DNA of 64,000 nucleotides from Dictyostelium discoideum (lineage: Eukaryota): assembly GCA_000004695.1 (NCBI GenBank), contig CM000154.2, positions 320,001 through 384,000 on the forward strand, read 5' to 3'. Position numbers and translations under genes: made by a program. Position 1 is the first letter of the stretch, and every line of letters starts with the position of its first letter. Under the pieces are notes generated by a model. It was not told the DNA's origin and made no database searches. It worked only from the letters and a program-made list of their open reading frames with translations. This document shows positions 16,533-54,880 of the stretch, one piece after another.

Positions 16533-19500
16533 TTAATTATTGTTATTAAAAATATAATTAATATGACTAATTATCATTTTTTCATTTACTTTCCAATTTT
16601 CGTTATAAGAACCAATTGACTTGAGCAAATTTTTAGTTCTCTTTGAAAGGTTTAAACCTTTATCAATATTATGTTTTTCATGGAAATCCATTGAATGGAA
16701 AGAACGGAATTTAACACATGATAAAACATCAGAATCCATGATCATTTGTCTCCATTTTCCAAAGGCGATTGGTTTACAATTATAAATTTTATTCATTGGA
16801 CCATAGATATCTTTTGGAGCAGTAATATCACCATAGACATTGTAAATATTTAATTTTCCATGATTTGATTCATCCCAACATTTGTCTGTTAATATTAAAT
16901 TCATTGTATTATCAGAGACCCAATCAACAGGAGTTAATAATACTTTCATATCAACATCTGGATAATAGCCAGTTGCATAACAACATTGAACTGAAAGTTG
17001 AAAGAAATCACTTGAAAGTCCAACACCAGTTTCTGGATGAGAAAAGATTGAAGGTGGTCTAATTAACATTGATGGAATACCTCTTCTTGCAGCTTCAATT
17101 AATAAATACTCTCCAACCACTTTACTTTGCATATAGCCAGCTGGTAAATTATCAATATTATCTAATGATGGTAAAATAGATTCATCAAATTCTTCACCAT
17201 TTAGAGATTGATTTATAAATACTGTAAAAGTTGAAAAGTTTACAATTGGTTTTTGAATTCCATTGATATGATCAGAGATTGATAATTTAATAATCTCAAC
17301 TATACCATCAACATTGACAGGTTTATTAGAGTTATAATCAGATTCTAAATTTAAATCAGCACCAGAGTTTATAATTAAATTCGCATTGTTTGCAATCAGT
17401 GAATAATCTTTATCTGATAAACCCAATCTAGCCTTTGCTAAATCACCAATAACTGGTACAATCTTTGAAAGTTGAATTTGATTCAATTGATCATAAACTT
17501 TATGATGTTTTAAATTATTAATAATTTCATTGATTGGATTTGTCGAATTGGATTTATTTCTTAAGAGACAATAAGTAACTGAACAATTTGATAATTTTAA
17601 TAAATGTACCAACATATGAGCTCCTAAAAATCCTGTTGTACCAGTTATGAAAACTCTTTTATCATTTTCTTTAACAATTTTTAAATGTTGAATTGATGGA
17701 TCCAATTTCATTTCATTCTCCCAAAATTGTTTTCTTTCTTCTTTGGTCATCTCTAATTTTGAAATTAATTTACCATCTAAAAACTCTTTATACTTTTGTT
17801 CAATTAATATAATAGAATCATTGATTGAATTATTTTGAAGTTGTTGAATTGTAACTAAATTTTTAACCTTTAAATATCTATCAACCCAATTCTTAATTTG
17901 AACAATAATTAATGAGTCTGCACCATATCTAATTAATCTTTCATTCCTATCAATTAATGATTCATCACTGAATTTTATAAATTGAGCAGATTTTTTAAAG
18001 AATAATTGTTCAAATGTTATATTACTATCATCTTTGGATGATTCATTGATTTCGATTGATTTATCACACCATTGATAAAATGGTAATTTGGTTGTATTTT
18101 TCTTGAAACTTTTATCATATCTATTTTCCCCACCAAATTGACAATTAAAATCAATATTAAAATTATTGAGATATAAATCAATTAAAGTTTTTTGAAACTC
18201 TTGATGGTGATTTTTCCTTTTATGACATGGTGAATATACTGAAACTGAATCACCATCATTAAAGTATTTAGAAGAGATTGGTATCATTTCCTTTAAATAA
18301 TTTGATAATGATGGATGTGGTGCCATTTCAAAGAATGTAACTTTTGAACCTAATTGATTATCTTCAATATATTTATAAATGTTTGAAATTGTTTCATCAA
18401 AATAAACAGGAAGTGCAATACAATTGAATAAATGAGTTGAATCGAATTTTGTTGATTCGTTATCGAAAAGTTTTGTATTAACTGTTGAAAAAGTTGGAAC
18501 TATTGGTTGTTGATGTTTAAATTTTAAATTTGTAAGATGTTCTCTTGTTTTATTTTGACTTGATGTATGACAAGATGCAAGTGAACTTAACATAGTTGCT
18601 GTTACACCATTGTTTAATAAGATTTTAGATATTTCGTTTAGATCATGTTCAGGTCCACCAATAACGATAGAATTTGGTGAATTGAAACAACTAAATTCCA
18701 CATTTGGATAATTTTCAATTGGAATAATAGATTGATATTCATTCTTTCCAATTGATAAAGATAACATTTTACCAATACCATTGGTTGAATCCTGTGCAAT
18801 TCCTCTTTGGGATACTAATAAACATGCAGTTTCTAAGTCAAACATACCAGAACAATAGGCAGCGAAAACTTCACCAATACAATGACCTACAATAATTGAT
18901 GGTTTAATACCCCAATGTTTATATAATTCAAATAATGAAATATTAAAAATAAATAATAAAGGTTGTGAAATTGTTGATTCATTAATTAAATTTGAACAAT
19001 CAGCAATTGATTTTAATTTTTCTAATGGTGAAAATCCTAAATATTTAATTAATTTTTCATTAATTAAATCTGCTGATTTCTTAAAAAAAACTTCATTATT
19101 ATACAAATCATCCATCATTGTAATATATTGTGGACCTTGACCACAAAATACAAATACATTTACAGATTCATCATCATTAATATTATTATTATTATTACTA
19201 TAATTTAAAATTGGTGAATAATTAATTGAAGTTTGAATATTCTTTAATTCATCCCAATCCTTTGCAATAATTATTGATTTTGATTTTAATTTAATTGATC
19301 TTGAATTAATTTGATGTTTTACAAAATCTTTAAATGGTATGGTTGATTGAAATTCATTGTTTTTATCTTCAATTATAATTGATTGTACTTTTTTTAAAGA
19401 ATTTATAGAATTTGCAGAGAATGGAATTAAATAATTTTGACTTTCAACTTTATAAATTAATGATGGCGATGGTTGATCTTCTTCTCTTGAAATGTTTTTG

Positions 19501-20324
19501 TTATAAATAATTTCTTTATTATTATTATAATTATTTTCAAAATGTTTTGAAAAAATGAAACTAGGTGAATGATAAGGACCATAAACAATTGTATTGAAAA
19601 TTAATTTACTTTTTGAGATATTTTCAAATTTTAAAAATGATTTAATCATTGATATGATACCAACAGATTCAGAGATTTTATTAACGGAATATCTATTATC
19701 AGTTCTTGGAATTTCTAAATCGGATATTTCATTAATATCTCTTACTGAACAATAAATATTATCATTATCAGCGATTGCATCTTCCAAACCCTTTAAAATA
19801 AATGCACCAACTTGTTCAATTTCACCATTTTTATTTCTATTTGAACCTCCAATGATTGCAATTTTTGAGTCACCAAAAAATATAGACTTATAACCAAATT
19901 TTAATGAGGCAACAATCGAACCAACACCATTGTTAGTTAAGCATTCACCTTTCAAATTGAATGCTTGAGAGACTCTTATCGAATCTGGCATTCCTGGTTC
20001 ATATTGATCTGAGCCAATCAAAACCGAAGTTTTAATTGAAGTTTGTAAATTGGTTGGATCAATATTTGCATTTTCCATTGATTCCCAAATACATTTCAAA
20101 AGGAGGATTTGTTTTTCACTAATCTTATCTTTACTCTCATCTAATTTGAAAAATAAAGAAGAATCAAATTCTTTAATTTCATTTGAAATTGAATCTGATG
20201 ACTTAATTTCTTTTAGTTCATTTTGAATTTTGTTTTCCAATAATTCATTAATATTATTTATATATGTATTGTTTTTTAAAAATCTAAAACCAACACCAAT
20301 AATTACAACATTATTACCTTTTAT

Positions 20325-20327
<3 letters not shown>
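16533..20327 (-). CDS. Compact polyketide-synthase-like protein (1264 aa): degenerate KS-like N-domain, acyltransferase, ACP, C-terminal NAD(P)-dependent thioester-reductase domain
   Basis: Single 1264-codon ORF from ATG (complement of 20325-20327). It opens MIKGNNVVIIGVGFRF (typical KS start IAIVGMxCRFPG). The KS-like region keeps IAIIGGSN and GAFILKGLEDAIADNDNIYCSVRDIN (compare GVVVLKRLSDAxADGDxIYAVIRGSAVN) but the active-site Cys is absent (GECLTNNGVGSIVA in place of DTACSSSLVA) and there are no HGTGT/His motifs. The AT domain has VFVFCGQGPQY...GHCIGEVFAAYCSGMFDLETACLLVSQRG, i.e. a GHSxG motif with Cys in place of the nucleophilic Ser. The ACP has LIRYGADSLIIVQIKNW (GxDSL). The reductase has VFITGTTGFLGAHML (Rossmann) and AGYMQSKVVGEYLL (YxxxK). 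Confidence 0.75.
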
Positions 20328-20369
<42 letters not shown>

Positions 20370-20446
20370 CCTTATTTACTTATATTTTTTAAATGGTTCA
20401 ATGTTTTGGTTTAGATAAGTTTTTTTTTTTCTTTCATCTTTTATAG

Positions 20447-20500
<54 letters not shown>

Positions 20501-21165
20501 GTTATATTAAGTAAAATGTAAAAATTTTAAAATTCGACCCAATCGGAGACCAAACTTGATTTTTGAAAAAAAAAAAAATTGTGTTGATTCATTTTATTAA
20601 TTTATTTATTTGTTTGGAGATAAAAATATATTTGTAAATGAGGTAATATCAAAAGAAAAAAAGCCATATTTCGAAATAAAATAAAAAAATATAATAATAA
20701 AAATTAAAAAATAAAAATTTAAAAATAAAAAAAGAAAAAATACAGTGTTACATTTTTTTTATTTTTTTTTAATTTTTAAATTTATATTTTCCATTTCCTT
20801 ATTTTTGTTTTTTAATTAATAATTAGGTTTTTTGTTCAAATTTATTAATAGATATTTTATTTTTTCATCCATTTGAACAAAAGGGAAATAGTTCAAAATT
20901 CTAAAAAAAAAAAAAAATATTTATTTAATTGTAAAAATTAATGTAGTGTAAATATATTATTTTTCCCAAGGGAGAACTATGTACTTGGGTACCGATTTTT
21001 ATTGCTCCGTGACACTTATTCTATAATCAAAAAATCTCAAAAAAAAAAAAAAAAAAAATTATAAAGAAAAAAAGAAACAATACAAACCAAACAATTTTAT
21101 TTTTATCTTAATTAAATTAAACACCAGTGAACAATTAAAAAAAAAAGTCTAAAATAATAATAAAA

Positions 21166-21192
21166 ATAATAATAATAATAATAGTAATAATA

Positions 21193-21258
<66 letters not shown>
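21166..21258. repeat. (AAT)n/(AGT) microsatellite, intergenic
   Basis: aataataat run with two agt interruptions between the PKS-like gene and the UBIAD1-like gene. Confidence 0.85.
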
Positions 21259-21416
21259 TTAAACAACACCGAATTTGATTTTTGTAATTATAATAATAAT
21301 AAAATAATAAAATAATAAACACCGAATTTGATTTTGTCTTTTCACAATTTAAAAATCTAATATTAAATTAAATTTAATTTTTTATTTTTATATTATTTTT
21401 TTTAATAACTATAGAT

Positions 21417-22545
21417 TTATTGCATACTTAATAAAACACCAATTGCATTTAAACCACCAAAAAAGAAGGAGAGTTGACCAGTTTTTTCAGTGAGATCTTC
21501 TAATTTTTTATTTTTAAATTGATTAATTAATGAAATAATTTTTGGAATTAAAATTAATGGTAAATTTAAAATATATTTATCAATATCTAATGATAATTTA
21601 AATAAATAAATATAGGCACTAAAATAAAATAAAATTAAATTAATTATTAGTCAATATTTGTTAACAGTTTTATATTTGTTCATTTTTTTTATTATTATTA
21701 TAATAAAATAAATAAATTAATAAATAAAATAAATTAAAATAAATTAATACGTACAATAAATATAAGCCAGCATAAATATAATAACAATTTTTAAAACCTA
21801 ATTTTGAAGCTAATGTAATTGAACCAGCTTCTGTATCAGCTTTAATATCTCTTGTATTATTTACATGTAAAACAGCAACGATTGTCAAAGCCAATGGGAT
21901 TGAATAAAAGTAAGCTAATGAATCATGATAATGAGTTTGAGAGATGAATGCTGATTGTACCAAGATTGGACCAAAACATAAGAAAATGGTTAAATCACCC
22001 AATCCAATATATTTTAAACCAATTGGAGCGGCAGTATAGGAGATGTTTAAAATGAAGCCAAAAGCACCCAATGGTAGGATATTCTCCACTATACATTTGA
22101 TATTATCCATTCTAAAAATCATTAAACCCAAACAAATTGCACATTGAATTAATAAATACCAAATTAAATTTATAATATTACCCTCTGTTAAACCAAAATC
22201 AAACATTGTTCTATCGGCTGATTTCTCTTTGGTATCATTTCCATTCTTACAATCATAAAAACTATTTACAACATTACCTAAGGCTTGTAATGAAACTGCT
22301 CCAACTAAAATAATTGATAACATTATACTATCAAATTCTCTAATCTCTCTAAATGCTAATGCTGATCCAACCAATACTGATGTAACTGAAATTGTTAATG
22401 ACCATGGTCTAGTTGCTAAAATAATTCCCATTAATTTTGAAATTGGTGGTTTTTGTTGTTGTTGTTGAGATGATTCTGTTTTAATCTCTTTAGTTTTATT
22501 TACAACTTGTTTTGTTTTTTCATTTCTATTTATAGTTGTTGACAT
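21417..22545 (-). CDS. UbiA-family prenyltransferase (UBIAD1/MenA-like), 2 exons: join(complement 21755..22545, 21417..21618)
   Basis: Exon 1 MSTTINRNEK...TRPWSLTISVTSVLVGSALA...NSFYDCKNGNDTKEKSADRTMFD (UbiA Asp-rich motif region, compare UBIAD1 [22 protein letters not shown]) has multiple TM helices. A minus-strand GTACGT donor at 21754 and a 136-nt AT-rich intron ending TTTTAG (acceptor at 21619-21620) continue in phase as FAYIYLFKLSLDIDKYILNLPLILIPKIISLINQFKNKKLEDLTEKTGQLSFFFGGLNAIGVLLSMQ*. The ORF-track tail ...YYNNNKKNEQI is read-through into the intron. Confidence 0.75.
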
Positions 22546-53591: not shown

Positions 53592-54255
53592 ATGGATAAA
53601 ACTATTATAAATAAAAGCAATAAAATGAAAACTTCTTCCACTTCCTCTACTTCTTCTACTTCCACTTCTTCTACTTCTTCCCTTTTAAATCAACAACCAA
53701 CACAAGATACACATAAATTAAATAATAAAAATTTTAAAACGAATCAAAGGAAAAAAATTGAAGAAGAGTTGATCGAGCATAATAAACTAAATAACATGTT
53801 AAAAGATATATCCAAAAAGTATGAACATAAAATTCAAATTAAACAAGAATCAATTGTTACCATTGAAAAGGTTGTCCAATCATTTGTAAAGGTGATTTTA
53901 AAGAAAACAAACATTGATAATAACACTTTGCAAATCACTGAAATTTATAAAACTTTAATCGACTTAGATTTAGAATTTTTGTTACCAATTCGTGGTGTTA
54001 CAATAAAATCGTATGTATTTTTATATATATATATATATATATAAACATAAAACATTCTCATTTTAATGCGAGTAATTTTACTTTATTTTTTTTTTTTTTT
54101 TTTTCCCTCTCCTAAAGAAATACAAGAAAACCATCAATGAATAAATTTCTTTTAGCAGATAGTGATAAAAATTTTGAGGAGAAACCTCAACAACAACAAC
54201 GACAGCAACAACAACAACAACAACAACCACAACTGCTGCAACAACTGCAACAACG

Positions 54256-54328
<73 letters not shown>

Positions 54329-54438
54329 CTGCAAATGCAAATACAACAACATCAACATCGACAAATGCAAATACAACAACAACATCGACAAATGCAACTA
54401 CATCAACAAATGCAACAACAACAACAACTACAACAACT

Positions 54439-54507
<69 letters not shown>

Positions 54508-54649
54508 GATGCAAATACAACTGCAATTACAACATCAACCTCTAAACCACCAATATTATAATCTCCAAATGCAACAAAGTTGTGAACAAAATAATATCAT
54601 TAATAGTTTTAATGATTATAATAATATCAATAACAATAACAATAATAAC

Positions 54650-54738
<89 letters not shown>

Positions 54739-54880
54739 TAACCAACCTACACCATCTATATATAATCAAGATAATATAAACAATAGTTTTAATAATATAA
54801 TATTTAACACTGAAAATAACTTTTTCGAATTGGAAGACAATTTCAACCCTGAAAATTTTTTGGAATTCGAAAATATTTAA
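53592..54880 (+). CDS. Gln/Asn-rich nuclear-type protein, 2 exons: join(53592..54010, 54118..54880)
   Basis: Exon 1 MDKTIINKSNKMKTSSTSSTSSTSTSS...IEKVVQSFVKVILKKTNIDNNTLQITEIYKTLIDLDLEFLLPIRGVTIK ends at a GTATGT donor at 54011. A 107-nt intron with (TA)n and poly-T ends CCTAAAG at 54117. Exon 2 SNTRKPSMNKFLLADSDKNFEEKPQQQQRQQQQQQQQPQLL...(Q)n...(N)n...FELEDNFNPENFLEFENI. The 350-nt (CAA)n/(CAG) tract generates spurious overlapping ORFs on both strands (54152..54397-, 54162..54545+, 54542..54769-, 54582..54779+). Confidence 0.6.

Follow-up and report, generated by a model that had tools for sequence, protein, structure and literature searches.

We report here a compact, single-exon gene of Dictyostelium discoideum that probably, though by no means certainly, encodes a neofunctionalised, non-condensing descendant of a Pks21-like, thioester reductase (TR)-terminated iterative type I polyketide synthase (PKS), an enzyme which, judging from its sequence, would load an acyl group and reduce it without any extension. 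The gene lies in a 64,000-nucleotide stretch of contig CM000154.2 (the window, to which coordinates refer unless another sequence is named), where its complete coding sequence, 1264 codons plus stop in the open reading frame (ORF) listing, occupies 16533..20327 on the minus strand. An exact-sequence look-up identifies the encoded protein as D. discoideum AX4 XP_637198.1 / EAL63693.1 / UniProt Q54KA0, an uncharacterised protein that carries the database name ‘beta-ketoacyl synthase family protein’. It consists, in this order, of a remnant of a beta-ketoacyl synthase (KS) domain, a linker, an acyltransferase (AT), an acyl carrier protein (ACP) and finally a TR. A first reading of the DNA letters (the original prediction) had proposed just such a KS0-AT-ACP-R architecture; the Pfam domain search bore this out, and all motifs quoted in that reading are present at verified coordinates.

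The gene is intact well beyond the sequenced strain. Full-length orthologues with 76-94% identity occur in other D. discoideum strains, in two ‘D. cf. discoideum’ genomes, in D. citrinum and in D. dimigraforme, and four other Dictyostelium genomes have it likewise as a single exon with the same gene order around it (UbiA, the compact gene, a 370-aa hypothetical protein and UMP-CMP kinase). Four other species share its start and length, all length differences being in frame, and no fewer than five genomes, with synonymous divergence (dS) of up to 0.44, have the frame unbroken. The ratio of nonsynonymous to synonymous change (omega), estimated by the Nei-Gojobori method with a codon bootstrap of 1000 replicates, is 0.20-0.25 for the whole gene (95% confidence interval (CI) 0.16-0.30), and a value of 1 was never reached in the 1000 bootstraps. 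The TR is the most constrained of all domains (0.07-0.10, 95% CI 0.04-0.16), the KS remnant comes to 0.17-0.21 (95% CI 0.11-0.34) and the AT to 0.26-0.30 (95% CI 0.17-0.44). For the block of residues 201-290, the linker (residues 291-390; 0.38-0.45) and the ACP, the estimates range from 0.32 to 0.45 with wider intervals, of which only the upper bound for the ACP, in one pair, reaches 1. The compact gene is a real gene kept by purifying selection in every domain, including the KS remnant. The earlier suggestion that the frame is under selection is upheld by these ratios and by orthologues that show no frame decay.

The KS remnant (residues 1-200; 19728..20327, minus strand) comprises the alpha/beta portion at the N-terminal end of the thiolase fold and is devoid of catalytic residues. 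The Pfam family PF00109 (ketoacyl-synt) matches it over residues 7-111 only, that is, with its N-terminal part (E 2e-7), and Q54KA0 has no Pfam match to Ketoacyl-synt_C (PF02801). Both VVIIGVGFRF and IAIIGGSN are present. In an alignment to full-length PKSs, the KS motif DTACSSS is replaced by NNGVGS, which places Val135 (19923-19925) at the position of the active-site Cys, a position that reads Val, Thr or Asp across the orthologues; HGTGT and SNIGH are both missing. All three residues of the Cys-His-His triad of iterative type I PKS KS domains are hence absent, as had been claimed, and a profile of Dictyostelium KS domains (n=20) agrees with the alignment: it matches the remnant at profile positions 8-130, 155-203 and 240-298 of 461 only, and positions ~299-440 have no counterpart in Q54KA0; ~40% of the KS is gone, both His motifs included. 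The KS of Q54KA0 cannot condense.

Downstream of the remnant lies an unassigned block (residues 201-290; 19458..19727, minus strand) with no match to the KS profile, a predicted local distance difference test score (pLDDT) below 50 and an omega of 0.35-0.42. Within this block, residues 220-264 (window 19536-19668) hardly vary from one orthologue to the next (ESVGIISxIKSFLKFxNISxSKLxFNTIVYGxxHSPSFIFSKxFE), although the prediction for them is disorder (pLDDT <50). An assignment of residues 205-290 to the KS post-GH helix or terminal strands was considered and rejected, since MAFFT and BLAST disagreed on it and the KS profile gave no significant match. The KS-AT linker domain that follows (residues 291-390; 19158..19457, minus strand) starts with YLIPFSANS, ends in an N-rich low-complexity tract and aligns to residues 454-550 of Pks16 as well as to the D. 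firmibasis PKS P0098.

The AT domain (residues 391-681; 18285..19157, minus strand) is a strong match to Pfam PF00698 (Acyl_transf_1; E 6e-29, 102 bits versus a cutoff of 32.7), and its most conspicuous feature is the motif GHCIGE (18870-18887, minus strand), in which Cys483, encoded by TGT at 18879-18881, stands in place of the Ser nucleophile. In a HMMER alignment to D. discoideum Pks16 (PDB 9nju), Cys483 pairs with the catalytic Ser of GHSFGE, and the two ATs also pair at their GQG, Arg and His motifs. BLASTP to E. coli FabD, with the FabD motif positions checked by counting, equates Cys483 with Ser92, Gln397 with Gln11 and Arg508 with Arg117. The third alignment is a profile of 558 AT domains from 245 proteins (244 retrieved ones plus the window protein), 550 of the domains being non-orthologues. 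The three independent alignments rule out the mis-registration of the motif against which the original prediction had cautioned, and place the Cys exactly where it had been proposed. The same prediction held a thiol at this position to be rare, and among the 550 other domains the nucleophile column contains Ser in 540, Cys in only 2 and Gly in 1; by this count, the Ser-to-Cys exchange is rare indeed.

The remainder of the AT active site is kept. Gln397 (of GQG), Arg508 (18804-18806) and His587, the equivalent of His201, are invariant in the orthologues, and the profile has Arg in 529 and His in 542 of the 550 other domains at the last two positions. In all five species Cys483 is encoded by TGT, GHCIGE is invariant, and the AT site is likely to be functional because its Cys stays fixed while the KS Cys position drifts between Val, Thr and Asp. 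A second Cys, Cys586, sits directly beside the catalytic His587 in the motif SCH (18567-18575, minus strand), at the position that is Phe in the specificity motif xAFH; Phe is found in this column in 338 of the 550 other domains, Ser in 147 and Cys in none. The xAFH/YASH position of AT domains influences extender-unit choice. When the 7 compact-clade sequences were compared with 28 full-length dictyostelid ATs, Y432F, A454S, S483C, Y506S and F586C turned out to be the only positions that are fixed in the compact clade and occupied to at least 85% by another residue in the full-length set; residue 506 lies two positions before Arg508. The clade-fixed changes in the pocket (S483C, F586C, Y506S and A454S) suggest that specificity was retuned, and the kept Arg508 suggests that a carboxy-acyl substrate such as malonyl would still be possible. 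That a Cys nucleophile with thioester chemistry is competent in the AT fold is known from the GxCxG motif of the starter-unit:ACP transacylase (SAT) domains of fungi (PMC10401856).

A related case is found within the genus. A full-length PKS of D. citrinum (2062 aa; P0009, KAN0034461.1, with the strain variant P0245, KAN0027669.1) combines an intact KS (DTACSAS/HGTGT/SNIGH) with an AT (residues ~539-856) that reads GHCFGE and has Tyr at the xAFH position, and is apparently elongation-competent. The compact clade does not have this AT as its sister, so that the Ser-to-Cys exchange arose twice, and its occurrence together with an intact KS suggests that an AT with Cys can operate.

The AT is followed by a linker (residues 682-764; 18036..18284, minus strand) that leads straight into the ACP; in a parent-type PKS it would run into the dehydratase (DH) domain, and it is here that the BLAST map to P0098 places the junction of a deletion of the DH, methyltransferase (MT), enoyl reductase (ER) and ketoreductase (KR) domains, for none of which Q54KA0 has a Pfam match. 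The ACP (residues 765-850; 17778..18035, minus strand) matches Pfam PF23297 (ACP_SdgA_C) over residues 765-847 (E 5.5e-17, 62 bits versus a cutoff of 27). Its YGADSL (GADSL at 17910-17924) contains Ser805, the predicted phosphopantetheine-attachment residue, pairs with YGIDSL of the Pks16 ACP and is invariant in the orthologues. The TR, or R domain (residues 890-1264; 16536..17660, minus strand), matches Pfam PF07993 (NAD_binding_4) over residues 894-1139 (E 1.8e-49, 168.7 bits versus a cutoff of 20.1) and also the MxaA reductase (PDB 4u7w, E 2.9e-32), whose GYAQSK pairs with YMQSK. The Rossmann motif TGTTGFLG (17622-17645) and YMQSK (17121-17135), with the predicted catalytic residues Tyr1065 and Lys1069, are both present, and TGxTGFLG and YMQSK are invariant in the orthologues. 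The original prediction had regarded the R domain as a departure from normal Dictyostelium PKSs. On this point it was mistaken: ~19 of the 40 D. discoideum PKSs end in a TR, which makes a terminal TR a normal feature (PMC12828403). The same source places an offloading enzyme behind the ACP in 21 of the 40, a chalcone synthase in two of them and, in the rest, enzymes described as ‘most likely monomeric thioester reductases’.

The origin of the gene can be traced in some detail. An exhaustive HMMER search with residues 65-1264 as query found the compact architecture in one 50% cluster only, and its best non-orthologous matches were full-length TR-type PKSs, namely P0098 of D. firmibasis followed by P0099, whose cluster includes AX4 Pks21 (DDB_G0282029). 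In the BLAST map, residues 1-203 of the query correspond to residues 6-277 of P0098, residues 211-757 to 398-930, and residues 715-1263 to 2406-2972; the gaps in this map correspond to the loss of ~120 aa of the KS core, of some KS loops and of ~1475 aa of DH-MT-ER-KR. In neighbour-joining trees, the compact clade falls within the Pks21 / D. firmibasis clade for the AT as well as for the TR, with a long stem branch, and thus the TR was inherited from a Pks21-like parent and not newly acquired. These relationships fit one parental gene with internal deletions, so that domain shuffling need not be invoked. Acquisition of the TR by horizontal transfer or domain shuffling was considered and rejected, since the exhaustive search finds the TRs of Dictyostelium PKSs at 47-50% identity, which points to vertical descent. 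A word-indexed search restricted to the ACP-TR part, in which low-complexity words swamped the candidates, had returned cyanobacterial ACP-TR proteins alone, at 33% identity.

The resemblance of Q54KA0 to TR-type PKSs such as Pks21 and D. firmibasis RB653_009810 is indeed extensive: the AT is 49-50% and the ACP-TR part 47-50% identical (~50% for the TR), and the N-terminus, the KS-AT linker, the ACP motif and the TR motifs are shared. In contrast to Q54KA0, these synthases have the KS Cys, both His residues and the ~1475-aa DH-MT-ER-KR block, and where Q54KA0 has Cys both at the AT nucleophile and at position 586, they have Ser and Phe. Because its KS core and DH-MT-ER-KR are gone, Q54KA0 can neither condense nor process a chain. 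It thus lacks the catalytic KS by which a PKS is defined, yet by its sequence it is clearly PKS-descended.

In the model that we propose, a paralogue of a TR-type PKS lost its KS catalytic core together with the DH-MT-ER-KR block (~1475 aa) and took on a new function. The AT would move an acyl group from acyl-CoA to Cys483, with His587 as the general base, so that the acyl-enzyme would be a thioester in place of the oxyester of other ATs. From Cys483 the acyl group would then be handed to the ACP of the same protein, onto the phosphopantetheine arm at Ser805, and the TR would finally reduce the acyl-S-ACP with NAD(P)H to an aldehyde, or to an alcohol after a second reduction, with no chain extension at any point. 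The KS remnant may have been kept as a structural platform, and possibly as a dimerisation element, for the linker and the AT. A further point in favour of the proposal comes from an AlphaFold2 (AF2) model of residues 1-760, built on a multiple sequence alignment (MSA) of 36 sequences. Its mean pLDDT is 75.9, with values above 90 in the AT, of 60-88 in the linker, of 65-87 in an alpha/beta unit formed by residues ~50-200 of the KS remnant, and below 50 for residues 199-294. The model superposes on KS-AT didomains with a TM score of 0.77 to Pks16 (9nju) and of 0.60-0.74 to DEBS, Lsd14, Pks13 and KSQ-AT structures, and the KS remnant is accordingly predicted to keep the canonical KS-linker-AT position.

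Several points weigh against this model. The TR scores 163.8 bits (E 6.7e-48) against the NCBIfam model TIGR01746, which is under the curated cutoff of 213.35, though its Pfam and PDB matches are strong. An AT oxyanion hole tuned for Ser might give a thioester acyl-enzyme lower stability or activity, and the D. citrinum Cys-type PKS, to which one might appeal in this regard, is itself active by prediction only. The intact KS-AT sequences in the MSA may have biased the placement of the remnant in the AF2 model, and its part in dimerisation is possibly correct but only a proposal. The reduction could consume either two or four electrons. Finally, searches of the literature and of supplementary tables returned no biochemical, expression or knockout evidence: no paper on this gene was found under Q54KA0, XP_637198 or EAL63693 and none on a GHCxG acyltransferase motif, and two proteomics papers on D. 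discoideum do not list the gene accession in their supplementary tables.

It is conceivable that the loss of Ser left the AT dead, and that only the ACP-TR part works, for example on chains loaded by another enzyme, or else that the protein is a scaffold in which the KS0 and AT0 regions merely serve folding. This would account for the TR being by far the most constrained domain, it draws on the near-universal Ser (540 of 550 domains), and the stand-alone 440-aa TR of D. firmibasis implies that TR-only proteins are viable. Nevertheless, we regard it as unlikely: the AT omega of 0.26-0.30 has an interval well below 1, Gln397, Cys483, Arg508 and His587 are invariant, the Cys with the same codon in five species, whereas a dead site should drift as the KS Cys does, and Cys is a competent nucleophile in the AT fold. 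Less likely still is that Q54KA0 acts in trans, its SAT-like AT taking a finished chain from the ACP of another synthase for release by the TR, with the KS remnant as a docking surface. Donors could be sought among the ~19 D. discoideum PKSs without an offloading domain, since only 21 of 40 have one (PMC12828403), SAT domains do shift acyl groups by GxCxG thioester chemistry (PMC10401856), the KS remnant is more constrained than the AT, and the AT pocket has been remodelled at residues that neighbour the catalytic His and Arg. However, the compact gene is not adjacent to any PKS, there is no sign of a partner, Arg508, which is typical of malonyl-type ATs, is kept, and the AT nests among ordinary extender-loading Dictyostelium ATs. 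We attach the same small probability to a stand-alone ‘acyl shuttle-reductase’ of a new type, in which the Cys AT would have converged on SAT-like thiol-to-thiol transacylation, and in which finished chains from the ACPs of the ~19 D. discoideum PKSs without an offloading domain, or a specific CoA thioester such as malonyl-CoA, would be converted to aldehydes or alcohols.

Two more trivial explanations have hardly any standing left. More than half of the parental domains are lost, evolution is faster in the linker (291-390) and in the block 201-290 (omega 0.35-0.45), and truncated PKS-like models exist in other dictyostelid genomes, all of which could be expected of a decaying PKS fragment or pseudogene with a long frame preserved by chance; an intact frame in at least five genomes, a whole-gene omega of 0.20-0.25 and length changes that are exclusively in frame effectively refute it. 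The original prediction had also allowed for the ORF being the 3' part of a longer PKS with upstream exons in 20.3-21.4 kb, and hence an artefact of the gene model. Apart from the short KS region, nothing speaks for this, and we give it practically no credence. Residue 1 of the query aligns to about residue 6 of P0098, at the true N-terminus of full-length PKSs; the ATG is preceded by a poly-A tract; the ~1.1 kb upstream of it (20328-21400) are an AT-rich spacer, beyond which the upstream UbiA-like gene ends at ~21415; neither inspection of 20200-21700 nor tblastn with four full-length PKSs over the whole 64-kb window revealed any PKS sequence outside the ORF; and the orthologues consist of the same single exon, with start and length shared by four other species.

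Returning to the load-and-reduce model, it is instructive to compare Q54KA0 with better-known systems. It shares with the SAT domains of fungal non-reducing PKSs the AT fold, a Cys nucleophile (GxCxG) and the transfer of an acyl group onto an ACP (PMC10401856). Unlike these, its AT groups with the malonyl-type ATs of Dictyostelium and keeps the equivalent of Arg117, with no close kinship to SATs, and whereas a SAT lies N-terminal to the active KS of an elongating synthase, the AT of Q54KA0 comes after a dead KS remnant. The loading modules of the KSQ/KS0-AT-ACP type likewise have a non-condensing KS-like domain before an AT and an ACP, and the predicted fold of Q54KA0 superposes on KSQ-AT didomains with TM scores of 0.65-0.68. 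A KSQ, however, has the full KS fold, with Gln for Cys and both His residues, and decarboxylates malonyl-ACP, whereas Q54KA0 has Val, Thr or Asp and no His motifs; moreover, its last domain is a TR, and there is no module downstream that could receive a chain. Finally, the carboxylic acid reductases (CARs) and the A-T-R reductases that resemble nonribosomal peptide synthetases load a carrier and then reduce the acyl group with a TIGR01746-type R domain, a course of events that would have its parallel in Q54KA0. The likeness to CARs put forward in the original prediction holds in this sense, as an analogy, but not as an assignment to the class: Q54KA0 has no Pfam match to an AMP-binding/adenylation domain and would load by its AT from a pre-activated thioester in place of ATP-dependent adenylation, and the NCBIfam CAR model (NF041592) gives it 53.7 bits versus a cutoff of 1300, over the R region only.

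Among the relatives, the closest full-length one is a non-syntenic tandem locus of D. firmibasis (CM069770.1, retrieved piece 1-19010), which holds two TR-terminated PKS genes, for proteins of 3042 aa and 2973 aa; the interval between the two contains an ACP-like fragment (~8446-8787). P0098 was rejected as an undeleted positional orthologue of the compact gene, since it sits in this tandem PKS cluster without UbiA or kinase neighbours. D. firmibasis also has a stand-alone 440-aa TR (P0118/RB653_003200; CM069768.1, retrieved piece 8001-9323), which is 43% identical to the TR of Q54KA0 and lies between a urocanase gene and a lipase-like gene, a PKS-derived TR fragment kept as a gene of its own. 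In D. purpureum, another group-4 dictyostelid, DICPUDRAFT_148651 is a similarly compact, PKS-derived AT-ACP-TR protein, which differs from Q54KA0 by the absence of both KS remnant and linker and by an AT that still has Ser (SHSIGE). It was rejected as an orthologue, being at another locus, 31-36% identical and outside the Pks21 clade, and was probably derived independently. The gene model of DICPUDRAFT_148651 (GL870972.1, retrieved piece 6001-8600) splices out an in-frame segment of the TR Rossmann region, NIFLTGASGYLG...CLIRNKK, at ~7.4-7.6 kb, and the annotated 806-aa protein is probably ~25-30 residues too short. Given the compact gene, the AT-ACP-TR protein of D. purpureum and the stand-alone TR of D. 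firmibasis, stripped, TR-retaining PKS derivatives recur in group-4 dictyostelids.

As for the surroundings, the neighbours of the compact gene are a two-exon UMP-CMP kinase gene (14067-14735, plus strand) and a gene for a UbiA-family prenyltransferase (21415-22545, minus strand). Neither these two nor the other neighbours are obviously tied to polyketide or lipid-aldehyde metabolism, and for this reason we see no biosynthetic cluster around the gene. The window as a whole has a G+C content of ~20% and no Rfam matches. Elsewhere in it, an ORF at 54137-54880 (plus strand) encodes mostly poly-Gln and poly-Asn, as is usual for Dictyostelium, and is the source of the extreme GC and AT skew at 54-55 kb. 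A multi-exon gene with a talin/FERM-like N-terminus (MSLTLKIQIVRDKQVKAMKFSPTQT...) at 56738-64000 (plus strand) runs into a stretch of ~40% G+C that extends beyond the window end and accounts for the compositional step at 58 kb.

To our knowledge, products have been established for only a handful of the ~40 iterative PKSs of Dictyostelium, and we know of no established mode of product release for the approximately half of them that lack an offloading domain. A terminal reductase and PKS-derived fragments are ordinary for the genus; what specialists would find noteworthy is a nucleophilic Cys that is conserved, a second Cys next to the catalytic His and a KS stump under selection. The natural Ser-to-Cys swap in a canonical malonyl-type AT, accompanied by a change in the specificity motif, offers a comparison of oxyester and thioester acyl-enzyme chemistry that is relevant to AT engineering, and Q54KA0, a minimal AT-ACP-TR derivative preserved by selection, would be a small, tractable protein for the study of TR offloading and AT-ACP recognition in Dictyostelium PKSs. 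Were it to act in trans on other synthases, this would constitute a new release mechanism for amoebal polyketides, and if the ‘acyl shuttle-reductase’ proved true, a trans-acting reductive release route would have evolved at least twice, in the D. discoideum clade and in D. purpureum. If the function that we propose is correct, the compact gene illustrates how the paring of PKS genes can leave an enzyme that loads and reduces but does not elongate.

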